Shown: positions 8,205-55,139, counted from the stretch's first letter. The stretch is DNA of 64,000 nt from an uncultured Candidatus Saccharibacteria bacterium (GCA_964520295.1 CAZFMQ010000001.1:84604-148603); one strand, 5' to 3'. Program-made: numbers and translations. The notes: generated by a model not told the origin, from the letters alone.

Positions 8205-10424
8205 CTATGCCTCGTCATCCGCACCACCATCATCCGTTGCGGTGCCATGTGCTACCAAAATTTCACGCGGCTTGCTTCCATCGGCAGGACCGATAACGCC
8301 TCGTTCTTCCAAAATATCCATAAGACGTGCCGCGCGCGAATAGCCAATACGCAATTTGCGTTGCAAGTACGATGTAGACGCTTTGCCGGCGCGAATCACA
8401 ATGTCGCGCGCATCCTCAAACAAATCATCATCAATCTCATTATCGTCTTCTATACCGCTACCAGAACCGCTCTCACCACCGAGATCAATGGCATATTCCA
8501 TTTCCGTTGTGCCGTCATCATGGCTTCGCAAGAAATCAGTCACTTTTTTCACTTCTTTTTCAGAAATAAACGCTGATTGAATACGTCGCGGCTTTGCCAT
8601 CTCACCGCCTTGATAGAGCATGTCACCAGCACCGAGCAATTTTTCGGCACCACTGCTATCCAAAATAGTACGTGAGTCAATTTGTGATGCCACCTGCAGG
8701 GCAACGCGCGCCGGCACGTTCGCCTTAATAAGCCCAGTGATGACGTTGACTGAAGGACGCTGTGTTGAAAGTATGAGGTGAATACCCACGGCGCGCGACA
8801 TTTGCGCCAAACGCACAATGGCTGATTCCAGCTCACGCGGGAACGACGTCATGATGTCGGCGAGCTCATCAATAACCACCACGATATACGGCATTGCTTC
8901 AGGCGCGTCAGGTTGCTCGGCGCTACGAATAGCACCTGCTTCACCCACAACGCTTTCATGATATGAGGCAATATCGCGCACGCGATGTTCCTGCAACACG
9001 TTATAACGGCGTTCCATTTCTTTGGTGAGCCATTTGAGCGACAAAATTGCCTTCTTTGGATCTGTAATCACTGGAGTCAGCAAGTGCGGAATACCGTTGT
9101 ACAGCGTCAATTCCACGCGCTTCGGATCAATCATCACAAAACGCAATGTGTTCGGGCCATTTCGGAACAGCAGAGAATTGATGAAGGCGTGAATGGTAAC
9201 GGATTTACCAGAACCCGTTGCACCTGCAATCAATGCGTGTGGCATCTTTGCGACGTTGGCAAACACTGACACACCTTCCACATCACGTCCTACGGCAACC
9301 ATCAATGGATTGCGCGAGTTGGTGTACTCATCAGAGGCAAGGAGCGATGCAAGTCCAATAGTTGCTTTTGCAGTATTTGGTACTTCAATACCGACAAGTG
9401 CCTTGCCAGGGATTGGTGCTTCAATACGCACAGGGTGCGCCGCCAGCGCAAGTTCAAGATTTTTCTGCAAGCCGAGAATTTTGTTGAGACGCACACCTTC
9501 GGCGGGCTTCATGGCGTAGCGCGTTACCGATGGACCGATTGAGATTTCATCCATGGCCACATCAATACCAAAGTTTTGCAGTGTGCGTTTGATGATATTT
9601 GCATTTGCTTTGATATCACCGACGCCGGGTTTGCCGGAATCTCGCGCAAAGATAGAGAGTGGCGGTGGCGTGTATGCACCTGCAATTGCAGGAATGGCTG
9701 TCAGCGCCACCGCTTCTTTTTTACCAAATGAGAATAGCCCTGCTTTTTTGACGCGTGGCTCGTCATCTTCTGCATCATCTGCATCGGCATCATCCGACGC
9801 CTCATCATCTGCATCAGGCGTTTGTTGGGGAAGGGTAGAGACAACCTCTACATCATCATCTTCAAAATCTTCTTCGTCTTCTTCTTGCTCGGCGCGGAGT
9901 TCTGCACGACGCTCTTGCCATGCACGCCACGCTGCAACAGGGTGTGTGTTGAGGAGCACTAACAGAGAAATAGAGAAGAGTGCAAGCAATGAGACGGCGG
10001 TTCCAGCGATATCAAATAAATTGACAAGCGGATGTGTAATGAAAGCACCGATGAGCCCGCCACTTTCAGGAAATGCTAGCTCAAGCAATCCAAGACCTGC
10101 GAGCAAAAAAAGTGCAGAGCCGATGATATTGGTAGCGGCAAAGTTCGCCTTCTCTGATCTAAAGTAATTGATTGAGAGCAGAAGGGTGAGGGTGGGGAGG
10201 AGGAAGTAGCCGACGCCAAGTAGGTGTGAGAACCATGAAAATACGTGCGAACCAACAACCCCCGCTTTATTGAATGCAGAGAGAAAAAGGAAGAGTGTGA
10301 TAAGTAAAAAAACAACTGCGAGTACCGCGTACCAGGTCTCTTCTTGTAGTCCAAGAGAGAGAGAAGAACGTTCTTTTTCAACGATGCTGCGCTTGTCTTT
10401 CTTTGCTGATTTTTTCTTTGCCAT
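8205..10424 (-). CDS. ftsK: DNA translocase FtsK/SpoIIIE: N-terminal membrane domain, acidic D/E linker, C-terminal motor plus gamma domain
   Basis: Walker A AGATGSGKS, VVIDELADIM, and the C-terminal winged-helix gamma domain (RAARLMDILEERGVIGP). Confidence 0.95.
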   Translation of the reverse strand: MAKKKSAKKDKRSIVEKERSSLSLGLQEETWYAVLAVVFLLITLFLFLSAFNKAGVVGSHVFSWFSHLLGVGYFLLPTLTLLLSINYFRSEKANFAATNIIGSALFLLAGLGLLELAFPESGGLIGAFITHPLVNLFDIAGTAVSLLALFSISLLVLLNTHPVAAWRAWQERRAELRAEQEEDEEDFEDDDVEVVSTLPQQTPDADDEASDDADADDAEDDEPRVKKAGLFSFGKKEAVALTAIPAIAGAYTPPPLSIFARDSGKPGVGDIKANANIIKRTLQNFGIDVAMDEISIGPSVTRYAMKPAEGVRLNKILGLQKNLELALAAHPVRIEAPIPGKALVGIEVPNTAKATIGLASLLASDEYTNSRNPLMVAVGRDVEGVSVFANVAKMPHALIAGATGSGKSVTIHAFINSLLFRNGPNTLRFVMIDPKRVELTLYNGIPHLLTPVITDPKKAILSLKWLTKEMERRYNVLQEHRVRDIASYHESVVGEAGAIRSAEQPDAPEAMPYIVVVIDELADIMTSFPRELESAIVRLAQMSRAVGIHLILSTQRPSVNVITGLIKANVPARVALQVASQIDSRTILDSSGAEKLLGAGDMLYQGGEMAKPRRIQSAFISEKEVKKVTDFLRSHDDGTTEMEYAIDLGGESGSGSGIEDDNEIDDDLFEDARDIVIRAGKASTSYLQRKLRIGYSRAARLMDILEERGVIGPADGSKPREILVAHGTATDDGGADDEA

Positions 10425-10470
10425 GCTACTCGTATTGTAACACGCAATGCCTGTGGATAACTCAAAAATA

Positions 10471-10632
10471 GGGAACGGGGAACAGATGACAGGGAAGAGA
10501 AAATACGAAGAAGACCAAATCTCCCATTGGAGATTCAGTTTCTAGATATTCAGGGTTCGGAGCCCCACTTGGGGCTCCGAACCCCAAGTGCATTCACCCC
10601 GTTCCCTGTGAACTAGCCCCCGTTCCCAACCA
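10471..10632 (+). repeat. MITE/REP-like intergenic element, copy 1. Imperfect terminal inverted repeats (GGGAACGGGG...ACAGGGAA) enclose a perfect 13-bp hairpin (10554-10583) and the conserved tail AAGTGCATTCACCCCGTTCCCTGTGAACTAGCCCCCGTTCCC.
   Basis: Left end 10471-10498 gggaacggggaacagatgacagggaaga. The reverse complement of the right end 10595-10627 is gggaacgggggctagttcacagggaacgggg. The hairpin ggttcggagcccc-actt-ggggctccgaacc was read directly. Confidence 0.55.
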
Positions 10633-10745
10633 TTGGTGGACAACCCCCAGCATCTGTTTTTGAGTATATAAATCACACAAAAAACACTTGTCTTTTACGT
10701 GTCCGAGAGTAGTATTGAGTTGTCTTTGAAACTATATCGGACATT

Positions 10746-11528
10746 ATGGAACGCCAAAAAGACAATCAAAAAGACATTCTCCCCTCTTACCTTTCGGCAA
10801 ATGACTTTTATGACCATGCTCGTAAAATCATTACTGCTATTTACCTCCTCACGGACATACTCAAAGACGAGGAACCAATCAAGTGGACTCTACGAACGAA
10901 CATCATTGAAGTAATGTCTGATACGGGTGTTCTCTCTCGATCATTCGGTGCTCGTCAAACCGACGGTGACGAAAAGGACATTATTGAGAAAATTACCAGC
11001 ATCCAATCACTCCTTGATGCAGGGGTTTTTGCAGGTCTCGTTTCCCCTTCTAATCACGAGATTCTTTCCAAAGAGCTTGCTGTATTTCAGAGAAACGCTG
11101 TTCGCCACTTTCATGAAGTTGAAGGTAATCAATCATTGATAACAAGTGCACTATTCTCTTCATTCTCATGGGACGATGTGCCGCAGATTTCCGAACCTCT
11201 TAAAGGACATTCAGATACATATAAAGGACATATAAAGGACACTCAAACCAACATAAAGCATGTTGCCACAAAAAGGACTTCGGTAGCATCAAAAAAGACA
11301 ACCAAAGCGAAAAACGCAACAGAAAACAATGGTGCCACACAGTCCGATAGAAAATCAAAGATTCTCAGCCTTATCCGCACGAAAGGCAACGTCATGATAA
11401 AAGACATAACACCAGATTTCCCTGGTGTGAGCGAAAAAACCATTCAGCGTGATTTGTTAGACCTTGTTGCAAAAGGAAGTATCTCAAAGACGGGTGAACG
11501 CCGCTGGACCACATACTCTATTATATAA
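10746..11528 (+). CDS. Hypothetical protein: unknown N-terminal domain, K/T/S-rich linker, C-terminal DeoR-like winged-HTH (SEKTIQRDLLDLVAKGSISKTGERRWTTY). Visibly lower GC than its neighbours.
   Basis: ORF 260 aa. HTH pattern at the C-terminus. A-rich codon usage. Bracketed by repeat copies 1 and 2. Confidence 0.6.
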   Translation: MERQKDNQKDILPSYLSANDFYDHARKIITAIYLLTDILKDEEPIKWTLRTNIIEVMSDTGVLSRSFGARQTDGDEKDIIEKITSIQSLLDAGVFAGLVSPSNHEILSKELAVFQRNAVRHFHEVEGNQSLITSALFSSFSWDDVPQISEPLKGHSDTYKGHIKDTQTNIKHVATKRTSVASKKTTKAKNATENNGATQSDRKSKILSLIRTKGNVMIKDITPDFPGVSEKTIQRDLLDLVAKGSISKTGERRWTTYSII

Positions 11529-11831: not shown

Positions 11832-12096
11832 GGGTACACGCACGGAAAGAAAGTTTTGGGAGCTGACGACTGCACTTTGACAAATCAATAGAGAGTACGG
11901 AAAAAAGAAAGCGCACAAACGTTTTTCTTCTTTCTAAAATTATTTCTGCCACGATGATATGGGTAGAACGGCACATACTGTGAGTCAGTATTCACTTACG
12001 CAAACTATACCCCGAAGCGGTTGGCCGTCCGGGTGTAGTGATTAAAAAAGTTATTAGTTATCAGCTCCCTATAACCAAGGGAAAAAACAAAAAATT

Positions 12097-13929
12097 ATGT
12101 TAAAGAAAGTAGGCCTCGTAGGTCTTCTCGCCGCAGCTGCATTTGCACTTCCTGCATCAGCAGCAACGGTTGAAGAACTTCAGGCACAAGTAAACGCGCT
12201 TCTTGCACAGCTTGCAGGTTTGCAAGGTGGTTCAAGCAGCTCAGCAGGTTGTTTCACTTTTACCCGTGACCTTACAGAAGGTTCAACAGGTGCAGATGTA
12301 ACAGCACTTCAGAATTATCTCGCAAGCACTGGACACTTTTCAGTAGCCGCAACGGGATACTTCGGTTCAATTACTCGCGCATCAGTTGCTTCATGGCAAG
12401 CAGCGAACGGTGTTGCTCCAGCAGCGGGATACTTTGGCGCAATTTCACGCGCAAAGTACAACTCAATGTGTGGTAGCACAGGTTCAACTGGATCAACCGG
12501 TTCAACTGGCTCAACAGGTTTGAGTGGTGGTGAGGCGGATCTCTCAGATCTCTCACTCTCATCAGGCGACGACTCAACACTTGAAGAAGGTGAAGATGGT
12601 GATGTAGCAGAATTGGAGTTTGACGTTGACGACGCAGACGTAGAAGTTCAGCGTGTTGACCTCGTATTCAAGAACACATCATCACCTGCATCAGGTGATA
12701 AGAAGCCTTGGAAGGTTTTTGAAGACATCACACTCATGCTTGATGGTGATGATGTAGCAGATGTTGACGGTTCTGATGAAGATAACTGGAGCGAGCTCGC
12801 AAATGACGAGTACCGTCTCCGCTTCTCAGGTATTGGCGCAGTTGTAGAAGGTGACGAAACAGCATTGTTTGTTGTGAACGTTGCACTTCAGAACAGCGTT
12901 AAGGATTCAGACGACGGTGTTGAATGGAGCTTGTGGGTTGCAGACGATGGTATCCGCGCACTCGATGGTGAAGGTATTGACCACACTCTCGGTGATGCAG
13001 ATGAAATGGCGGATGCAGACGACGTAGTTTCATTTGACATTGACGAGGAAGGTGCAGACGAAGACCTCAACCTCAAGTCATCATCTGATGATCCAGATGC
13101 AACGACATTCCTCGTTGATGAAGACGACAAATCAGATTGGTTTGAAGCATTCATCTTCAACATTGAAGCTGAAGATGGTGATATTGACCTTGAAGATCTC
13201 GTAATTACTGTTACAACTGACTCAGCTGCATACAACATGGTTGTAGATGATGTTCGTGCCGTAATTGATGGTCGCACCATCAAGAAGGACACCGTAACAA
13301 ACTCAACCTCAACTACAGCTACTGTCTCATTTGATATCGATGGTAAAGTTACCGTTGATGCAGACGACACTGTAGAAGCAGTTATTGAGTTGCGCTTCCG
13401 CCCAACAGCAGAAGGTGCAAACTACGGTTCTGGAACAACAACTGTTGAAGTTGCAACTGTATCTATCACAGGTGAAGGTGCTATTGACCACACAGACACT
13501 GCAACTATCACTAGTGCAGAACACACACTTTCAACATCACCTGCAACGATCTCTAACGTAAGTTGGTCATCGTCAGAGTCAGGTAATGGTGCAACAGGTG
13601 TGATTGACTTCTTCTTCACTGTATCTGCAGATGAAGACGATGTTGATGTTCTTGGTTCAGAAATCATGGACACCATCACAGGTGCTGGTACATTTGACGC
13701 AGGTGTAGGTACTACATCAGCATCAACGTACGGTAACCTCTCACGTGTATCAGGTGATAGCGTAACACCTATCTCTGGTGGATATCGTGTGGGTGAAGGT
13801 GATTCTACCCGCTTCCGTGTTCGCTACAACGCATCAAGCGCTGGTGTATACGAAGTGACTATGATTTCAGTCGCAGGGCAAGCAGTTGCCGACGACGACC
13901 AGTTGTCACCTTCATTGATCCTCGAATAA
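12097..13929 (+). CDS. Secreted protein: signal peptide, two peptidoglycan-binding-like repeats, an (STG)5 linker, and a long D/E-rich beta-strand region
   Basis: Signal peptide MLKKVGLVGLLAAAAFALPASA. Repeats GADVTALQNYLASTGHF...ATGYFGSITRASVASWQAANGV and ...PAAGYFGAISRAKY resemble PG_binding_1 and recur in the M23 peptidase at 18663-19628. Confidence 0.7.
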   Translation: MLKKVGLVGLLAAAAFALPASAATVEELQAQVNALLAQLAGLQGGSSSSAGCFTFTRDLTEGSTGADVTALQNYLASTGHFSVAATGYFGSITRASVASWQAANGVAPAAGYFGAISRAKYNSMCGSTGSTGSTGSTGSTGLSGGEADLSDLSLSSGDDSTLEEGEDGDVAELEFDVDDADVEVQRVDLVFKNTSSPASGDKKPWKVFEDITLMLDGDDVADVDGSDEDNWSELANDEYRLRFSGIGAVVEGDETALFVVNVALQNSVKDSDDGVEWSLWVADDGIRALDGEGIDHTLGDADEMADADDVVSFDIDEEGADEDLNLKSSSDDPDATTFLVDEDDKSDWFEAFIFNIEAEDGDIDLEDLVITVTTDSAAYNMVVDDVRAVIDGRTIKKDTVTNSTSTTATVSFDIDGKVTVDADDTVEAVIELRFRPTAEGANYGSGTTTVEVATVSITGEGAIDHTDTATITSAEHTLSTSPATISNVSWSSSESGNGATGVIDFFFTVSADEDDVDVLGSEIMDTITGAGTFDAGVGTTSASTYGNLSRVSGDSVTPISGGYRVGEGDSTRFRVRYNASSAGVYEVTMISVAGQAVADDDQLSPSLILE

Positions 13930-13970
13930 TAATTCTTGGACAATGGTTCTCTGAAATGAGAACAACAAAA

Positions 13971-13996
13971 ACACCTCCGTAAGGGGGTGTTTTTGT
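13971..13996 (+). terminator. Rho-independent terminator ACACCTCC-GTAA-GGGGGTGT followed by TTTTTG
   Basis: Read directly after the stop codon at 13929. Confidence 0.75.
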
Positions 13997-14082
13997 ATTG
14001 GAGAAAATAACCTTAGTAACCGAACCACTCGTACGAATGGTTCAGTTACTACGTGGGTATATCTGGTATACTAGAGAGCAAT

Positions 14083-14262
14083 ATGAAGCCACTGTTTAAT
14101 CGCACATTCTTTAAGTTTGTGTTTGGGTTTTTGGGGATACTGCTCGTGGGTTTCCTCATTCTTTTTGCGGTTAATGCGGTCATGTTTGCGAAAGGCGTGC
14201 ACCTTGAAGATGATTCCAATGCTGTTCTGACGTGTATAACAAGCTCCGGTGTGCCCTGTTAG
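14083..14262 (+). CDS. Possible small membrane protein (about 59 aa)
   Basis: ORF 14053..14262 with internal ATG 14083 (MKPLFNRTFFKFVFGFLGILLVGFLILFAVNAV). Followed by a terminator. No homology recognised. Confidence 0.35.
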   Translation: MKPLFNRTFFKFVFGFLGILLVGFLILFAVNAVMFAKGVHLEDDSNAVLTCITSSGVPC

Positions 14263-27423: not shown

Positions 27424-28824
27424 ATGGAGAAGTTTTACGTCACCACACCGATATATTACGTCAATGACAAGCCCCATCTCGGGCATGCGTATTCCACGTT
27501 GATGGCGGATGTGTTTGCGCGGTACTGGCGTGGGCGTTTGGGCGCCGATAATGTATTTTTTCTTACCGGCACCGATGAGCACGGACAGAAGATTGCCGAA
27601 GCAGCAGAAAAAGCAGGGAAGCAACCACAGGAATTTGTAGACGAGGTATCGCAACAATTTAAAGATGCATGGAGCACGCTCAATATCTCGCACGATTATT
27701 TTTTCCGTACGACTGATGCACAGCATAAAAAAATTGTGCAGGATATTTTACAGGCGCTTTATGATCGAGGACTCATTTATAAAGATATCTACCGTGGTCT
27801 GTACTGTGTAGGGTGCGAACGCTATTTGCAAAGTGACGATATCGTTGATGGTCATTGCCCACTGCATCCAAACGGTACGCTTGAAGATAGGGAAGAAGAA
27901 AATTACTTTTTGCGTCTCACACAACTTGCACCGCACGTTTTGGAAGCGCTTGAACGTGACGAGTATCGTGTGCTTCCCGTAGAAAAAAAGAATGAGATTG
28001 TATCTAAAGTGCGCGGAGGCATCAAAGATGTATCTATCTCTCGTGCGGGCGTGTCGTGGGGTATTCCTATTCCGTGGGATACACAGCATACCGTGTACGT
28101 GTGGATTGATGCACTTTTCAATTACTTCACTGCAACGCGTATTGTGCCGGGCAAAGAGCAATTCTGGCCTGCTGACATCCACATTCTTGCAAAAGACATT
28201 TTATGGTTCCATGCATTTATTTGGGAGGCGTTGCTCATGGCTTCAGAATTGCCACTGCCGAAGGTGGTGTTTGCACACGGCTTTTTCACCATTGATGGAC
28301 AAAAGATGAGCAAATCTCTTGGTAATGCGGTAGATCCAAAAACGCTTGTAGAAAAGTACGGTGTTGACGGTGCGCGCTACTTACTCTTGTCGGCGTTTCC
28401 GTTCGGTAATGATGGTGATATTTCACTGTCGCGTTTTGATGAGAAGTTCAACGCGGATTTGGCAAATGGTATTGGTAATCTCGTATCGCGCGTTGCAACG
28501 TTATGCGAGAAGGCACAACTGACGGGCTTGCCCGAACCTGAAGTAGACACGGTGTCATCAGATGCATTTGATCGCTTTCAACCCGATGAAGAACTTGCGC
28601 GCATTTGGAATGACATCAGAACGTTGGATAAAAAAATAAATGATGATGCACCGTGGAAGTTGGAAGGTGCGCAACTCAAAACGGTCATTGCTGTGTATGC
28701 AAAAGCATTGTTGCGCATTGGGGTGGCGTTGAAGCCATTCCTTCCAGAGACAGGGGATCGTGTCGTGGAGATTTTCACAAAGCCCGCGGTGACAAAGCCA
28801 CACCCACTTTTTTCACGAGTGTAA
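27424..28824 (+). CDS. metG: Methionyl-tRNA synthetase, short form without the C-terminal tRNA-binding (Trbp111) domain
   Basis: HIGH motif (PHLGHAYS), FFLTGTDEHGQKI, Zn-knuckle CVGCERY...CPLH, and KMSKS. Confidence 0.95.
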   Translation: MEKFYVTTPIYYVNDKPHLGHAYSTLMADVFARYWRGRLGADNVFFLTGTDEHGQKIAEAAEKAGKQPQEFVDEVSQQFKDAWSTLNISHDYFFRTTDAQHKKIVQDILQALYDRGLIYKDIYRGLYCVGCERYLQSDDIVDGHCPLHPNGTLEDREEENYFLRLTQLAPHVLEALERDEYRVLPVEKKNEIVSKVRGGIKDVSISRAGVSWGIPIPWDTQHTVYVWIDALFNYFTATRIVPGKEQFWPADIHILAKDILWFHAFIWEALLMASELPLPKVVFAHGFFTIDGQKMSKSLGNAVDPKTLVEKYGVDGARYLLLSAFPFGNDGDISLSRFDEKFNADLANGIGNLVSRVATLCEKAQLTGLPEPEVDTVSSDAFDRFQPDEELARIWNDIRTLDKKINDDAPWKLEGAQLKTVIAVYAKALLRIGVALKPFLPETGDRVVEIFTKPAVTKPHPLFSRV

Positions 28825-41974: not shown

Positions 41975-42361
41975 ATGTCGCGTGTTCCGTTCGTTTCGTA
42001 TTCGTGGAAAGAGGGGAGAGTGTGGGATTTATGGATGTTTGTGCATTTTCTATCAGGCACGACCATCGGTTTTGCAAATGCATACCTGTCCCTTCCTACA
42101 ACATACCTATTTGGCCTTTGTGCACTCGGTATGATTCTATGGGAGATTGTTGAGATTGTCGGCGGTGTGCATGAAGTGGCAGAAAATCGTTTGCTGGATG
42201 TTGCAACTGGCTTGTTAGGGTTGTTTGTGGCAAGCGAGTTGATTATGTCGCGCGTCTCACTTGATTTCGCACAGGCGTGCTTCTACATCAGCGCCGCTCT
42301 TTTGTTGCTTGGCTGCTATTTTGGTTGGAGTGCATACCAAAAACGCATGCAGGGGATGTAA
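41975..42361 (+). CDS. Hypothetical membrane protein (3-4 TM helices)
   Basis: 128 aa hydrophobic ORF. Confidence 0.5.
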   Translation: MSRVPFVSYSWKEGRVWDLWMFVHFLSGTTIGFANAYLSLPTTYLFGLCALGMILWEIVEIVGGVHEVAENRLLDVATGLLGLFVASELIMSRVSLDFAQACFYISAALLLLGCYFGWSAYQKRMQGM

Positions 42362-42649
42362 AGGTGGTGTAGTGTTTCTCCCGCTCTTTCAAATTAAAAA
42401 CCAAAAACTGGCGGGCTACCTCGGGCTGGAACCGTGGTCGGTCAAGCCCGGGTTGGTTATTTTCATTGATTTTATTGTAGCAATTTAAGGTTCTAACAGC
42501 TCACCATTATTTTCAAAAAGTGACAAAAGTGACAGTACTTTGAGTATATTCGTTACAGCCATTTGTCACTTTTCTTCTAGTGACCATGCGACGAAACGCT
42601 AGTTCTGCATAGTCTATGCACCACCAACTGGTCTGTCATCAATAGGTGT

Positions 42650-43938
42650 ATGGAAACAACAGCGCCAGAGAAGTTGAAATACGTTCTGTATGCTCGAAAA
42701 AGTACCGAGAACGACGAACGACAGGCACTCTCGATTGATTCGCAAGTAAAGGAAATGTTACAGATTGCCGAGCGAGAAAGTCTTGAAATAGCGGATATAC
42801 GAAGAGAGGCGCATTCCGCAAAAGATTCAGGACAGCGACCAGTCTTCAAAGAACTTCTTAGCGACATTAGGCAAGAGAAGTTCAACGCGATTCTCACTTG
42901 GGCACCAGATCGTCTTTCGAGAAATGCAGGAGATCTGGGTCGATCGTAGACCTTATGGACGAGAAGAAATTGATATCCATTCGCACTTATGGACAGACCT
43001 TCTCCAACTCCCCGAACGAAAAGTTCCTCCTCATGATTCTCTGTTCTCAAGCGAAACTAGAGAACGATAATCGAGGCATCAATGTAAAACGAGGTCTACG
43101 CGCGCGGTGTGAGCTAGGACTATGGACGACTACGCCGCCAACAGGCTACCTCAAAGAAAAGCGGCTCGACAGGAAGAACGAATGCTATCCAGATCCAGAC
43201 AGAGAAGCCGTGATACGGCAGATATTTGAGAAAGTGGCGTACGAAAAATGGTCAGGACGCAAACTCTATCACTGGCTCACGTTCGAGCTGAACTTTAGAA
43301 CTGCCGCAGGAAAGAAACATTTAAGTCTTGGAAATATCTACCGCATACTTGAGAACACTTTTTACTACGGAGCATTTGAGTATCCGCGAGACAGCGGCAT
43401 CTGGTATCAAGGCAAGCACAAACCGATTATCACTAAGGAACTTTTTGATTTAGTCCAAGAGCAGATAAAGAACTCTCAGCTCGTCCGCAAGGAAAATATC
43501 GAGTTTGCCTTCACGAAGATTATGAAGTGCGGACTATGTGGCTCTGGTGTATCGGCAACCGAAAAGTTTAAGAAGCAGAAGAATGGACCATCGAAACGGC
43601 ATGTCTATTATGGTTGTACCAAAGCGAGAGACAAGAATTGCAAATGCGGGTATATCAACGAAACGGAGCTGATCGAGCAACTGCAAGATCTTACCGATAA
43701 GCTGGACCTCAAGAAAACGCCAATGCAGAACAAAATCAAAATGGAGATCAGGAGATTCAAGAAGTTCCAGGGAATGGTCACCGGAAAGAGCGACAGCATC
43801 GATGTCGATGATGTGGATATTCAGAACTACGCAAGATTTCTACTCAAAGAGGGTGATGATCAGGAGAAACGAGATTTGCTTGGTTGTTTAAAAGGAGAAA
43901 TATTATTAAGTAATAAGCTCATTTCATTAAAGCTTTAA
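42650..43938 (+). pseudogene. Large serine recombinase: resolvase catalytic domain, recombinase domain and zinc ribbon, interrupted by a 1-nt frameshift at about 42940-42950
   Basis: ORF 42650..42949 has catalytic YARKSTE and ends ...LSRNAGDLGRS*. ORF 42898..43938 continues IVDLMDEKK... in another frame with CGLCGS...YYGC...CKCG. The join needs one extra nucleotide in GGTCGATCGTAGAC. Confidence 0.75.
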
Positions 43939-44019
43939 TCGTAAAATTGACCGTAAGTGCCTACAGGTATATACTTTCTTTATAAAGCTATGAATGTGAA
44001 TAGTAAGTCGCAAGACTGA

Positions 44020-44202
44020 ACCAACCCAGGAGCTGCCTGCGATGAGCAGAGACGGAAATCCCAACCGTAAAATAGGGTGGCTGTATTTACAGCTGACAAG
44101 GGTTGTAATAGTGATATTGCAACCAAAGCAAGGTGGTACCACGAGTGATCCTCGTCCTTGCAGAGCCTATTCTTTTAGGTTTTGCAAAGACGGGGATTTT
44201 TC
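44020..44202 (+). promoter_or_regulatory. T-box riboswitch leader (proline specifier CCC) with a terminator, upstream of csaA-like and proS
   Basis: Stem I GA/K-turn motif GCGATGAGCAGAGA (44038-44052). Specifier loop ...GAAATCCCAA (CCC at 44060-62). T-box sequence AAAGCAAGGTGGTACCACGAG (44124-44145). Antiterminator A1 GCAAGG/CCTTGC flanks the bulge TGGTACC and the A2 hairpin ACGAG-TGATC-CTCGT. The terminator CGTCCTTGCA...TGCAAAGACG then TTTTT (44153-44201) shares its 5' strand with the antiterminator. Confidence 0.7.
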
Positions 44203-44226
44203 ATTTTATAATTAACCTACAACATC

Positions 44227-44559
44227 ATGATTACATATGACGATTTTACAAAAGTAGACATTCGCGTCGGGAAAATCACAAAGGTCGAAGATTTTCCCGA
44301 AGCTCGGAAGCCAGCATATAAAATCTGGATTGATTTTGGAGTAGAAATTGGTACTAAAGTTTCTTCTGCCCAAATCACAAAGCATTATTCAAAAGATAAC
44401 CTTATCGGCAAGCAAGTAATTGGTGTTGTGAATTTCCCACCAAAACAAATTGGTCCGTTTAAATCAGAAGTACTGACTCTTGGATTAACAGATGAAAATG
44501 GCGATGTTGTCATTGTTGCACCAACTAAAGAAGTTCCATTAGGCGGAAAACTATTTTAA
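44227..44559 (+). CDS. csaA: tRNA-binding protein (CsaA/Trbp111-like OB-fold, EMAP/MetRS C-terminal-domain type)
   Basis: DFTKVDIRVGKITKVEDFPEARKPAYKIWIDFG...IGKQVIGVVNFPPKQIGPFKSEVLTLG is the canonical Trbp111 domain. Confidence 0.88.
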   Translation: MITYDDFTKVDIRVGKITKVEDFPEARKPAYKIWIDFGVEIGTKVSSAQITKHYSKDNLIGKQVIGVVNFPPKQIGPFKSEVLTLGLTDENGDVVIVAPTKEVPLGGKLF

Positions 44560-44564
44560 CTATT

Positions 44565-45995
44565 ATGAAGTTTACTAAAAGAGACTTGCCAAAAAAATCA
44601 GAAAACCTTTCTGATTGGTATAACAAAGTAATTTTGATGGCTGAGCTTGCTGACTATGGCCCAGCAAAGGGAACGATGATTTACCGTCCCTATGGTTATG
44701 CTATCTGGGAGCTTATACAAAAAGAAATGGATAGTTTGATAAAGGAGCGCGGAGTTGAGAATGGATATTTCCCTCTTTTTATCCCTGAATCTTTGCTCAA
44801 AAAGGAAGAAAGTCATATTGAAGGATTTTCTCCAGAGCTAGCAGTTGTAACAATTGGCGGAGGTGAACAATTGACAGAAAAGTTGGTAGTAAGACCAACC
44901 AGCGAAACAATAATGTATGACGCTTATTCACGCTGGATCCACTCTTGGCGTGATTTACCGTTGATGATTAATCAGTGGAATAATGTCGTTCGATGGGAGA
45001 AAAGAACTTATATGTTTTTGCGCACAACAGAATTCTTATGGCAAGAAGGACATACTGCTCATGCGACACATGATGAAGCATGGGAGATGGTTTTATGGGC
45101 GATGAAAATGTACCAGAAAGTTTATCGTGAACTTTTTGCAATGCCTGGATATGTGGGAAGAAAATCTGAGTCAGAAAAATTTGCAGGCGCTGACAAGACT
45201 TTGACCTTTGAATCACTTATGCCTGAGGGAAAAGCTTTACAAAGCTGTACTTCGCACGATTTAGGTCAAAACTTTTCAAAGACATTCGATATTTCCTTCC
45301 TTAATTCAGAAGGAAAATCAGAGAATGTATGGCAGACGAGTTGGGGTCTATCTACACGCTCAATTGGTGGCCTTATTATGATGCATGGCGATGATGCGGG
45401 ATTGGTCTTGCCGCCTCGTCTAGCTCCAATTCAAGTTGTAGTTTTGCCAGTAAAAGGCGATGAAGAAATCATGGTGATATGTAAAGATATACAAGAGAAA
45501 TTAAAGGCCAAAAGTATTCGGGTAAAAATTGATGACTCAGATAATGAGACAATTGGATTCCGTATTAATAAGTGGGAATTAAAAGGTGTTCCTCTAAGGA
45601 TTGAAGTTGGCATAAAGGAAGTTGAGCAAGGCAAAATCACGGCTGTTCGCAGAGATAATGGAGAAAAGTTTAGCTTCTCAAATAATGAGTTGATCGAAAA
45701 GACTAGCGAACTCTTGCACACGATTCAGAGCGAGTTATATCAAAGAGCAGAAAAGTTTCTGCAGGAAAATACTCGGAACGTAAAAACGTACGAGGAGTTT
45801 AAAGAAACTTTGTCTGAAAAGCGAGGATTTATTTCTGCATTCTGGTGTGAGAATGAGGAATGTGAAAAAAATATAAAAGAAGAAACAAAAGCAACTACTC
45901 GGTGCCAACCAATTGATTCAGAAGAATTGGACGGAAAATGTGTCTATTGTAATAGGCCTGCAAAATACAGCTGGCTCTTTGGCCAGGCTTATTAG
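44565..45995 (+). CDS. proS: Prolyl-tRNA synthetase, archaeal/eukaryotic type (no INS editing domain, C-terminal Zn-binding domain ending in Tyr)
   Basis: Class II motifs, anticodon-binding domain, and a C-terminal CxxC...CxxC...Y (CENEECEKN...CVYCNRPAKYSWLFGQAY). Length 476 aa. AT-rich codon usage. Confidence 0.9.
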   Translation: MKFTKRDLPKKSENLSDWYNKVILMAELADYGPAKGTMIYRPYGYAIWELIQKEMDSLIKERGVENGYFPLFIPESLLKKEESHIEGFSPELAVVTIGGGEQLTEKLVVRPTSETIMYDAYSRWIHSWRDLPLMINQWNNVVRWEKRTYMFLRTTEFLWQEGHTAHATHDEAWEMVLWAMKMYQKVYRELFAMPGYVGRKSESEKFAGADKTLTFESLMPEGKALQSCTSHDLGQNFSKTFDISFLNSEGKSENVWQTSWGLSTRSIGGLIMMHGDDAGLVLPPRLAPIQVVVLPVKGDEEIMVICKDIQEKLKAKSIRVKIDDSDNETIGFRINKWELKGVPLRIEVGIKEVEQGKITAVRRDNGEKFSFSNNELIEKTSELLHTIQSELYQRAEKFLQENTRNVKTYEEFKETLSEKRGFISAFWCENEECEKNIKEETKATTRCQPIDSEELDGKCVYCNRPAKYSWLFGQAY

Positions 45996-46056
45996 CCACC
46001 CAAACTCAAGTGTTACTTGAAGCGAACACGAGCTTCCTCGTGCTAGCTGTTAAATG

Positions 46057-46143
46057 CGGAGACAAGAGGATTCGAACCTCTGGTCGGATTTCTCCGACAC
46101 CACCTTTCCAAGGTGGCGCATTCGACCGCTCTGCCATGTCTCC
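46057..46143 (-). tRNA. tRNA-Ser (anticodon GGA), type II with long variable arm
   Basis: Reverse-complement fold. Acceptor GGAGACA/TGTCTCC, 3-bp D-stem GCA/TGC, anticodon stem CCACC/GGTGG with loop TTGGAAA, variable arm GTCGG...CCGAC, T-arm AGAGG-TTCGAAT-CCTCT, discriminator G. Confidence 0.85.
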
Positions 46144-46166
46144 GTGTGTAGTGTTATACCACACCA

Positions 46167-53867: not shown

Positions 53868-55139
53868 ATGTTGGATATCAATTTCATTCGAGAAAACAAA
53901 GAAAGCGTCGCCGTGGGTGCAAAAAAGAAGCGCATGGAGGTGGACATTGACGCACTCATCGCACTTGATGACACACGCCGCACACTCACGCAGGTGGTGG
54001 ACGATATGCGCGCACAACAAAACACTGCAAGCGAAAAAATCCCACAGGCATCAGCAGAAGAGCGCACCGCACTGTTGGCAGATATGAAGACGTTGAAAGA
54101 AGCACTGCAGGCAAAAGAAGAAGAACTCAAGGGCGTGATGGAAGAATGGAAAACACTGATGTTGCAGGTGCCGAATGTGCCCGATATTTCGGTGCCAGAT
54201 GGCGACAGCGATGCAGACAATAAAGAAATAAAAGTATGGGGTGAGCCGAAGCAATTTGATTTTGAACCGAAAACCCACATTGAGATTATGGAAAATCTCG
54301 GCATGCTTGATTTGGAGCGCGGTACAAAGGTGCACGGCTTTCGAGGTTACTTTCTCAAAGGTGATGGTGCACAGCTCACATTTGCCATTTGGAATCATGC
54401 GCTCAACTTTTTCATGCAGAAAGGATTTGAATTGATGATTACACCTGCAATTGTAAAAAAACAATTGCTGTATGGCACGGGGCATTTGCCAAATGATGTT
54501 GAAGATATTTTCCGTACACAAGATGACGATTATCTTGCGGGGACCGCCGAGGTGCCGGTGATGGGATATCACAGCGATGAAGTGTTGGATCTAAAAGGAT
54601 TACCAAAAAAGTATCTCGCATTTTCTCCTTGCTATCGTCGCGAAGTAGGCAGTTACAGCAAAGATGTGAAGGGACTTATTCGTGTGCACGAGTTTTATAA
54701 GTTTGAACAAGTTATTCTCTGCGAAGCAAATCACGAAGAGTCAGTGAAGTGGCACGAATGGCTCAATCGTAATGCCGAAGAGTTTATTGAAAGTTTAGGT
54801 ATTCCGTATCATACCGTGTTGAATTGTGGTGGTGATTTAGGATTGGGACAGGTGAAGAAGTACGATATTGAGTTGTGGGTGCCTCTGGAGCAAAAGTATC
54901 GCGAGATCGGGTCGGCATCGTATTTCCACGATTTTCAATGTCGTCGTTTCAATATCAAATATACTGATGCAGAAGGACAGCGCCGATTTGCGCACTCACT
55001 CAATGACACCGCAATTCCCACACCACGTATTCTCGTCTCATTGATAGAAAATTATCAGAATGCTGATGGGTCGGTTACTATTCCTGAAGTATTGCGTCCG
55101 TACATGGGTGGTCGCGAGAAAATAGAGAAACGCTCATAG
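53868..55139 (+). CDS. serS: Seryl-tRNA synthetase
   Basis: N-terminal coiled-coil arm and class II motifs (FRGYFLKGDGAQL, GLIRVHEFYKFEQV, GSASYFHDFQCRRF). Confidence 0.95.
   Translation: MLDINFIRENKESVAVGAKKKRMEVDIDALIALDDTRRTLTQVVDDMRAQQNTASEKIPQASAEERTALLADMKTLKEALQAKEEELKGVMEEWKTLMLQVPNVPDISVPDGDSDADNKEIKVWGEPKQFDFEPKTHIEIMENLGMLDLERGTKVHGFRGYFLKGDGAQLTFAIWNHALNFFMQKGFELMITPAIVKKQLLYGTGHLPNDVEDIFRTQDDDYLAGTAEVPVMGYHSDEVLDLKGLPKKYLAFSPCYRREVGSYSKDVKGLIRVHEFYKFEQVILCEANHEESVKWHEWLNRNAEEFIESLGIPYHTVLNCGGDLGLGQVKKYDIELWVPLEQKYREIGSASYFHDFQCRRFNIKYTDAEGQRRFAHSLNDTAIPTPRILVSLIENYQNADGSVTIPEVLRPYMGGREKIEKRS

Follow-up and report, generated by a model that had tools for sequence, protein, structure and literature searches.

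How did a prolyl-tRNA synthetase (ProRS) operon with its own predicted tRNA-sensing leader come to lie between a serine recombinase gene and a tRNA gene in a candidate phyla radiation (CPR) genome, and from which lineage did it come? The question is posed by positions 42362–46150 of a 64,000-nucleotide (nt) stretch of DNA from an uncultured Candidatus Saccharibacteria bacterium (GCA_964520295.1, CAZFMQ010000001.1:84604-148603; hereafter the window), for which a sequence-only reading had proposed a horizontally acquired aminoacyl-tRNA synthetase cassette with its own regulatory RNA, delivered by a now-decaying integrative element from a Firmicute-like donor. The slot holds two adjacent but separable units, namely a recombinase gene (42650–43938) and a self-contained operon (43947–45995) in which a proline T-box leader precedes csaA and proS. 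With a probability of roughly 0.72, we read the operon or its proS as belonging to a CPR clade of low guanine-plus-cytosine (GC) content and as horizontally acquired, the donor not being a Firmicute. The operon, or at least proS, would have spread from that clade into CPR hosts of higher GC, including the Paceibacteria-like genome of the window. Horizontal acquisition is the reading best supported by composition, by an empty or variable site in relatives and by the occurrence of the module in several contexts, taken together, and to that extent the proposed cassette with its regulatory RNA is upheld.

First, the operon deviates in composition, as the GC and tetranucleotide scan that had been suggested for this region brings out. 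Among 311 sliding windows of 2 kb across the 64-kb stretch, the one at 43801–45800 is the lowest in GC (0.389, against a mean of 0.474 with a standard deviation of 0.024; z about -3.5) and ranks second in tetranucleotide deviation (0.41; mean 0.236, standard deviation 0.048). At 500-nt resolution, GC is 0.37–0.41 across approximately 43.5–46.0 kb and 0.44–0.51 on either side. Of the AT-richer islet that had been drawn from 42.4 to 46.15 kb, the dip itself stands and its onset at 42.4 kb does not, the recombinase region (42650–43938) having a GC of 0.445. The longer recombinase frame (42898–43938) even exceeds the host mean of 0.45 in GC at third codon positions (GC3), with 0.533. Because the corresponding values for proS are a GC of 0.392 and a GC3 of 0.348, the segment is compositionally heterogeneous, and the low-GC signal is the operon's. 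Apart from the operon, tetranucleotide usage is strongly aberrant at 12000–14200 (distance 0.42, with a normal GC of 0.46), a stretch that spans a 610-amino-acid (aa) open reading frame (ORF) encoding a PG_binding_1 domain.

Transfer within the CPR is best supported by a control analysis, in which the GC of proS was compared with that of its flanks at about 60 proS loci. In the control loci, proS GC minus flank GC runs from -0.04 to +0.07. In the clade at least 80% identical to the window ProRS, proS has a GC of 0.355–0.408 whatever the host, and the difference from the flanks is -0.065 in L065 (loci bear our own labels), -0.085 in the window, -0.121 in L069 and -0.128 in L159; it equals its flanks in L001 (0.35) and L061 (0.40), which look like native low-GC hosts of the proS clade. 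In L159, the ProRS is 80% identical to that of the window, while TopA, RelA, ParB and DprA are only 40–45% identical. The L159 gene itself (9769–11359; GC 0.41 in a host of 0.53) directly follows tRNA-Leu(CAA), without a T-box and without csaA.

These figures bear on the possibility of vertical inheritance, under which csaA-proS would be a native housekeeping operon, its low GC a constraint specific to the gene, and the differing slots of the relatives the outcome of ordinary rearrangement and loss. That ProRS and CsaA are both typical CPR proteins, that CPR ProRS is unusually conserved and that the operon is probably essential would all suit such a history, yet proS GC follows the host across the control loci and only this clade sits at 0.36–0.41 in hosts of 0.46–0.53. 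Nor would one expect a native operon to be the 2-kb stretch that deviates most in GC across the window, and almost the most in tetranucleotides.

Second, the site is empty or differently occupied in relatives. The best relatives of the window MiaA belong to Paceibacteria-type CPR (Campbell-, Taylor-, Zambryski- and Nomurabacteria; at most 64% identity), and we compared synteny with the four contigs that carry the best MiaA matches (L072, L074, L075 and L077). These have more than 13 flanking genes in common with the window, comprising on the left a flavin adenine dinucleotide (FAD) oxidase, GroES, GroEL, LemA, HtpX, the GGDEF protein and a small membrane protein, and on the right tRNA-Ser(GGA), miaA, tRNA-Leu(CAA), ParB, RelA, TopA, DprA and seryl-tRNA synthetase (SerRS). 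In all four, the membrane-protein orthologue adjoins the GGDEF gene, and the order tRNA-Leu(CAA)-miaA-tRNA-Ser(GGA) is kept; proS is in the slot in none of the four. The slot of the window is bounded and filled as follows.

41975–42361, plus strand: conserved gene for a 128-aa membrane protein after the GGDEF gene; left backbone boundary, outside the insert
42516–42573, no strand: perfect 12-bp inverted repeat AAAAGTGACAAA / TTTGTCACTTTT, halves 34 nt apart, with a third, overlapping half-site at 42525
42650–42949, plus strand: N-terminal part of the recombinase, Resolvase catalytic domain (PF00239, E = 1e-14), with a premature stop codon at its end
42937–42940, plus strand: frameshift site, GAT CTG GG_ TCG ATC, where the alignment to an intact homologue (P0365) switches frame
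42937–43938, plus strand (ORF 42898–43938): C-terminal part of the recombinase, PF07508 Recombinase and PF13408 Zn_ribbon_recom, in the -1 frame relative to the N-terminal part
43947–43975, plus strand: sigma-70-type promoter of the operon, TTGACC, 17-nt spacer, TATACT (10 of 12 positions; best match in the region)
43981–44207, plus strand: T-box leader, from the Rfam RF00230 match, an alignment-guided reading and the fold
44227–44559, plus strand: csaA, a 110-aa tRNA-binding protein with an oligonucleotide-binding (OB) fold, CsaA subfamily (PF01588, TIGR02222, NF007495 and PDB matches)
44565–45995, plus strand: proS, an archaeal/eukaryotic-type prolyl-tRNA synthetase of 476 aa (TIGR00408 proS_fam_I), 5 nt after the csaA stop codon
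45996–46055, no strand: spacer with two small hairpins, right-hand junction; homology to other operon copies stops at 45995
46056–46143, minus strand: tRNA-Ser(GGA), host backbone, right edge of the slot (ARAGORN and Rfam)

L072 carries the GGDEF gene, the membrane-protein gene, tRNA-Ser and miaA without the insert, which is the empty site that the sequence-only reading had suggested looking for; 233 nt separate its membrane-protein gene from tRNA-Ser, and similarity to the region 3' of this tRNA gene starts at about 46020 in the window. The slot of L074 and L075 contains a sigma factor gene, a YggT-like gene and small ORFs, and that of L077 three unknown ORFs. Since slot contents differ among the relatives, the slot is a recombination hotspot. 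The tRNA-Ser gene that had been taken as the end of the islet is indeed present at 46056–46143 on the minus strand; it is conserved host backbone and not part of the islet. The absence of the operon from this site in four syntenic relatives is a further difficulty for vertical inheritance, which would draw in turn on these relatives being not very close.

Several remnants were seen in the same slot. Just 3' of the intact tRNA-Ser(GGA) gene, L072 has a 53-nt partial copy that runs from the anticodon loop to the 3' end (11190–11243), and further on a shorter fragment resembling a tRNA 3' end; these fragments look like scars of earlier integration events. The tRNA-Ser(GGA) gene of L075 (10798–10884) has the opposite orientation with respect to miaA, which again points to rearrangement at the hotspot.

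Third, the same operon is found on other CPR contigs in other company. BLASTN of 41–48 kb against the loci of CsaA and ProRS relatives returned 76–82% identity over exactly 43965–45995 (L061–L071), and the span shared among the copies, from the promoter to the proS stop codon, lies in four different contexts. In L061 (1848–6578), the operon has an IS3-family transposase gene and a 115-aa fragment of a ThrRS anticodon-binding domain beside it, together with a Trp-repressor-like helix-turn-helix gene and, downstream, a 176-aa tyrosine-integrase fragment; in L066 it is beside pheS, and in L069 beside ruvA and rpsT. The copies have a GC of about 0.39–0.41 between host flanks of 0.40–0.53. T-box–csaA–proS is a discrete module, with differing contexts elsewhere. 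Such near-identical operons in unrelated surroundings are hard to square with vertical inheritance, and on the whole of this evidence we consider that history quite improbable.

Which lineage supplied the module? A Firmicute-like donor of cassette and T-box together, as first proposed, would be in keeping with the abundance of T-boxes, which is highest in Firmicutes (PMC7583486), and with the nearest non-CPR ProRS being those of Clostridia/Bacillota, many of which have a T-box 5' of proS. The best ProRS matches, however, are all from CPR/Patescibacteria (66–85% identity), with Clostridia following at about 50% (47–53%), and the best CsaA matches are likewise from CPR (75–93%), so that the proposed BLASTP comparison places neither protein's best relatives outside the host lineage. 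In Clostridia, the proS leader has a long, canonical Stem I bearing the usual AGAGA and GNUGNAA motifs, and csaA is absent; the short-Stem-I Pro T-box is common to several CPR lineages. A Firmicute source is contradicted for any recent event, and we find it scarcely credible. The related supposition, that T-box control is alien to a small-genome lineage, also fails, as similar Pro T-boxes are present in several CPR lineages, one of them before proB.

A low-GC CPR clade thus stands as the preferred source. Transferred aminoacyl-tRNA synthetase genes are known as xenologous replacements and as resistance copies such as IleRS2/mupA. The window resembles such transfers in that the synthetase phylogeny and composition are at odds with the host, and in that the regulatory element travels along; it differs from them in that the transfer here is within the CPR, with no sign of a second, resistance-conferring copy.

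Did the neighboring recombinase bring the operon in? The large serine recombinase gene is split by a single-nucleotide frameshift, as had been noticed, and both the domain matches and the alignment to the intact 433-aa homologue P0365 confirm this. Residues 8–97 of the first ORF align with residues 9–98 of P0365 at 62% identity and residues 14–344 of the second ORF with residues 98–430 at 47%; the homology changes reading frame exactly between DRLSRNAGDLG and SIVDL, where exactly one base is missing at 42938–42940, in or after the GGG run at 42937–42939. The three domains (Resolvase, Recombinase and zinc ribbon) are all found, yet not in one intact frame, and no lesion is seen besides the frameshift. 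Intact homologues have 430–565 aa; in NCBIfam, XisF and the cassette-chromosome recombinases CcrB and CcrC match best. Judging by this pattern, either the gene is a pseudogene of very recent inactivation, or a sequencing error accounts for the lesion; a "now-decaying" recombinase, based as it is on a lone 1-nt lesion, is unproven.

An assembly artefact could be invoked more broadly, the low-GC block or the frameshift then stemming from chimeric metagenome assembly or from sequencing error, given that the source is a metagenome-assembled contig, that similar operons probably co-occur in related populations and that the frameshift falls within a short G run. Set against this are the same GC discordance in L065, L069 and L159, which come from different assemblies and show it independently, the unique junction sequences, and a recombinase frame that is intact across 430 codons apart from the frameshift. 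We deem an artefact very improbable.

A single integrative element is the more serious alternative to two separable units. Recombinase and csaA-proS would have arrived jointly as an element of about 3.6 kb, resembling the staphylococcal cassette chromosome (SCC), next to tRNA-Ser, and the integrase would have been inactivated later. Only 8 nt lie between the recombinase stop codon (43938) and the operon -35 hexamer (43947), both units are within the slot that is empty in L072, and the NCBIfam matches are of the cassette type; yet the two units are far apart in codon composition (GC3 0.533 for the recombinase against 0.348 for proS). Furthermore, a relative of the serine recombinase is absent from all other operon-bearing loci examined, and the L061 operon has the IS3 transposase and tyrosine-integrase fragment as neighbors instead. 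The perfect 12-bp inverted repeat about 75 nt 5' of the recombinase start, which may bind the recombinase or serve as an operator, speaks for one element, but the motif has no copy at the right-hand end and no further exact copies in the window. The proposed search for attachment (att) repeats gave nothing better than chance-level matches of 14–20 nt, and att sites were not found. Serine integrases leave no long direct repeats, and for this reason the missing repeats are not decisive and do not count against a joint element. We consider a joint arrival unlikely, and delivery of the operon by the neighboring recombinase is unproven. Close relatives of ProRS or of the recombinase were not found on viral contigs.

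With two separable units as the preferred reading, the locus can still be set beside tRNA-adjacent islets and SCC cassettes with their cassette chromosome recombinases (Ccr). As in these, the locus lies on the 3' side of a tRNA gene and deviates in composition, a large serine recombinase gene stands at one end, and a relative has the site empty, with a partial tRNA copy in its slot. It departs from both kinds in that neither att repeats nor half-sites were identified, in that the recombinase carries a frameshift and is unlike the cargo in composition, and in that the cargo is a housekeeping-type synthetase operon.

A few minor features of the left edge may be added. A GC-rich hairpin at 42418–42475 (CCTCGGGCTGG...CAAGCCCGGG), followed by a T-rich run, lies 3' of the membrane-protein gene and is probably the terminator of the membrane-protein operon; if so, the left junction of the insert is between about 42460 and 42650. 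Two att candidates were rejected as chance-level, one a 14-nt inverted match that links 42357–42370 to the anticodon arm of tRNA-Ser, the other a gapped direct match of 20 nt. A possible tRNA-like fragment on the minus strand at 42360–42460 was rejected as well; it has no convincing tRNA alignment and is absent from Rfam output at E up to 10.

What kind of sensor heads the operon? The Pro-specific T-box that had been proposed is present, with an RF00230 match at 43981–44162 (66.4 bits, E = 2e-13; the gathering score is 93, and canonical-looking clostridial proS leaders also fall short of it), a proline specifier and an antiterminator/terminator pair. It is seen only at a relaxed Rfam threshold, a run at the gathering threshold missing it, and a simple terminator scan misses the T-box terminator because of its long interrupted stem. 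The leader is made up of the following parts.

43986–44035, plus strand: Stem I with K-turn (alignment to RF00230)
44021–44023, plus strand: specifier CCA, followed by A; the loop reads AGUA ... GAA-CCA-A, with GAA-CCA-A spanning 44018–44024
Distal Stem I, plus strand: a 3-bp stem and GCAA tetraloop (GUC-GCAA-GAC), all that stands above the specifier loop; 53 RF00230 consensus positions deleted
44036–44051, plus strand: Stem II, short
44052–44068, plus strand: Stem IIA
44060–62 pairing with 44075–77, plus strand: pseudoknot IIB, CCC/GGG
44079–44094, plus strand: extra hairpin between the pseudoknot and Stem III
44101–44124, plus strand: Stem III
44129–44160, plus strand: antiterminator with UGGU bulge at 44134–37, CAAGG-UGGUACC-ACGAG...CUCGU-CCUUG
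44143–44202, plus strand: terminator hairpin, with the U-tract running on to 44207

The conserved T-box sequence AAGGUGGUACCACGAG is found, and the antiterminator with its UGGN bulge is mutually exclusive with the terminator, as its 3' strand doubles as the 5' strand of the long terminator hairpin, after which comes AUUUUUCAUUUU. The terminator (44143–44207) folds at -36.6 kcal/mol (z = -8.2 against shuffles). Covariation was counted in four close leaders only (window, L061, L065 and L069), the MAFFT alignment of short and ultrashort leaders being too poor for pair counts. In these four, 98% of the cells of the model are paired, and six pairs show compensatory changes, which sit in Stem II, the extra hairpin, Stem III and antiterminator helix A1, the last of these being A-U to G-C; sliding the 3' partners by 1–3 columns drops the pairing to 28–44%. 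The -35 and -10 hexamers of the promoter are kept in L061, L065 and L069 as well. Every specifier is a proline codon: the window and L061 carry CCA, L065 and L069 carry CCC, and the more distant CPR leaders L012, L016, L023, L115 and L128 carry CCC or CCU. The genes behind the homologous leaders are proS or proB. Such variation is what a proline sensor would be expected to show.

Above the specifier loop, the distal AG bulge and distal loop that form the tRNA-elbow platform are absent, with 53 consensus positions deleted in the window and 74 in L023. The leader appears transcriptional because a strong hairpin with a U-tract lies 20 nt 5' of the start codon and the switch neither contains nor is followed by a Shine-Dalgarno-like sequence. 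Eight of nine truncated-Stem-I relatives (L061, L065, L069, L012, L023, L115, L128, L016 and the proB leader of L005) end in a hairpin and U-tract and are apparently transcriptional too, the exception being L016. In five (L012, L128, L115, L016 and L005), the specifier is placed in a 7-nt terminal loop, the ultrashort type.

Two of these leaders have peculiarities of their own. The T-box-like leader of L016 (5064–5622), with CCC in the terminal loop and no clear U-tract terminator, is separated from csaA by a small ORF of about 40 codons. In L005 (11457–11674, minus strand), a Pro T-box with CCC in the 7-nt terminal loop, an ultrashort Stem I and a terminator stands 5' of a proB-like gene resembling glutamate 5-kinase, and proS lies 4 kb away without T-box and without csaA.

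This architecture combines traits of two known groups. According to a review, a transcriptional T-box generally needs a long Stem I with an elbow-binding platform; Stem I is typically short or ultrashort in the actinobacterial ileS leaders, which act on translation and for which Stem II becomes indispensable (PMC7583486). Like the class I synthetase T-boxes of Firmicutes, the window leader has a basal K-turn in Stem I, a specifier loop with AGUA and GAA as S-turn motifs, a codon followed by a purine, the T-box sequence, the UGGN bulge, a competing intrinsic terminator and a synthetase gene matching the specifier codon. Unlike them, it has no platform of interdigitated T-loops to stack on the tRNA elbow, and it has the extra hairpin, a sub-gathering score and csaA as the first regulated gene. 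With the actinobacterial ileS T-boxes (PDB 6UFG and 6UFM; PMC7583486), it shares a truncated, platform-less Stem I and the retention of Stem II and the IIA/B pseudoknot, both of which the actinobacterial RNAs come to require for binding tRNA; those RNAs, in contrast, sequester the Shine-Dalgarno sequence and act on translation, while the window leader and its CPR relatives end in a terminator, and the specificity is for proline and not isoleucine, in another phylum. No description of T-boxes in CPR/Patescibacteria was found in the literature, the library searched being incomplete.

The two proteins of the operon are as had been predicted. ProRS is of the archaeal type, scoring 602 bits with TIGR00408 (cut-off 437) and matching PF00587, PF03129 and PF09180 (ProRS-C_1); it has the class II core, the HGTP anticodon-binding domain, the zinc-binding ProRS-C_1 domain and a C-terminal Tyr, with no INS editing domain. 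The stand-alone tRNA-binding OB-fold protein belongs to the CsaA subfamily, above the curated cut-offs (TIGR02222, 159.5 bits with a cut-off of 119.65; NF007495, 182 bits with a cut-off of 117), and has PDB matches to 2q2i (E = 2.5e-42) and 2nzh (5e-36). In the Trbp111 co-crystal, this fold grips the 3' CA of tRNA rather than the elbow (PMC11286949), and the contacting residues K33, R75, I77, S82 and M85 of Trbp111 correspond to K28, K73, I75, S80 and L83 of the window CsaA.

A tRNA-related role of CsaA next to ProRS is plausible from these residues and from its gene neighborhood. The ProRS gene adjoins csaA in 15 of the 80 CsaA loci of the metagenome scan, and csaA is repeatedly tied to proS under Pro T-box control, in CPR in the order csaA-proS with an archaeal-type ProRS. 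A literature link between CsaA and ProRS or the T-box was not found in an incomplete library. Related domains in Arc1p and AIMP1 can act in trans as synthetase cofactors, and AIMP1 binds the Glu-Pro synthetase. CsaA of the window resembles CsaA, Trbp111, Arc1p and AIMP1 in being a stand-alone PF01588 domain that keeps several of the residues with which Trbp111 holds the 3' CA; it differs in being encoded by the first gene of a tRNA-Pro-controlled operon, and CsaA is annotated as a secretion chaperone.

Other pairings of csaA were also seen. In L128 (5837–7561), a T-box with specifier CCC and ultrashort Stem I precedes csaA and then a 410-aa bacterial-type (type-II) ProRS gene without the INS editing domain, an arrangement from which it follows that csaA pairs with both ProRS types. 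In a lineage with a GC of 0.51–0.56 (L087, L089–L092 and L098), a long-Stem-I Pro T-box (CCC) is followed by archaeal-type proS and then csaA, which lies 48–770 nt 3' of proS, the two genes being convergent in L098. In L079 (2149–6333) and L080 (336–4191), the CsaA homologues, 79–80% identical to the window CsaA, are encoded two genes after secA.

Several points tell against the reading of a Pro T-box operon horizontally acquired from a low-GC CPR clade. None of the syntenic relatives is more than moderately close (MiaA at most 64%, GroEL 85%), L072 could have lost the segment instead of the window having gained it, and no att sites were found at the islet. CPR ProRS is very conserved generally, with 65–73% identity across classes, and the discordance in ProRS identity is therefore weaker than it seems at first sight, the case for transfer being mainly one of composition and synteny. 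As 64 kb of a 181-kb contig were at hand, replacement and addition of proS are indistinguishable. The T-box scores below the Rfam gathering threshold, and its Stem I and pseudoknot pairs are invariant in the four leaders, few as these are, so that covariation is silent there. Finally, close CsaA homologues near secA in other CPR genomes fit a secretion chaperone role. As to ProRS conservation, across L005–L016 the CPR ProRS are 65–73% identical while other housekeeping proteins fall to about 45%, the reason being either that ProRS is unusually constrained or that proS has been exchanged repeatedly among CPR.

How the operon would work can be sketched from the general T-box mechanism. The anticodon of uncharged tRNA-Pro(UGG) would pair with the CCA specifier in the shortened Stem I, helped by Stem II and the IIA/B pseudoknot. 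Subsequently, the free ACCA-3' end would pair with the UGGU bulge and stabilize the antiterminator, allowing RNA polymerase to read through into csaA-proS; a charged Pro-tRNA would lack the bulge contact, and the -36.6 kcal/mol terminator would form. Translation of csaA is probably coupled to that of proS, and CsaA most likely acts in trans, binding the 3' ends of tRNA in support of ProRS.

A bolder idea is that these leaders form a distinct T-box class carried by CPR bacteria, transcriptional and platform-less, with CsaA as part of the switch, of ProRS function or of both, and that sensor, cofactor and enzyme constitute a portable module passed between CPR genomes; here CsaA might deliver or buffer the 3' ends of uncharged tRNA-Pro or serve ProRS as a cofactor in trans. 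We offer this as a speculation and rather doubt it. The T-box architecture and the csaA link are variants of known systems, and the islet itself is an ordinary event.

If confirmed, these observations would have several consequences. The elbow platform of Stem I is thought to be necessary for tRNA capture in the short time that transcription allows, and platform-less terminator T-boxes would test the long-Stem-I rule and show how such RNAs capture tRNA fast enough. The unsettled role of CsaA, secretion chaperone or tRNA binder, would gain a testable hypothesis in tRNA metabolism, based on the repeated proline-T-box control beside two different ProRS types. A self-regulated housekeeping synthetase operon would prove to be exchanged among tiny-genome CPR lineages, and the downstream side of tRNA-Ser(GGA) would be a recombination hotspot in the group to which the window belongs.

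Other synthetases of the window and its relatives add minor observations. MetRS (27424–28824) and SerRS (53868–55139) have no T-box 5' of their genes. The MetRS has only 466 aa and is without the C-terminal Trbp111-like domain of many bacterial MetRS; the stand-alone CsaA could serve it in trans. In L099 (1619–3347), a class IIb synthetase gene of the Asp/Asn/Lys type starts 2 nt after csaA.

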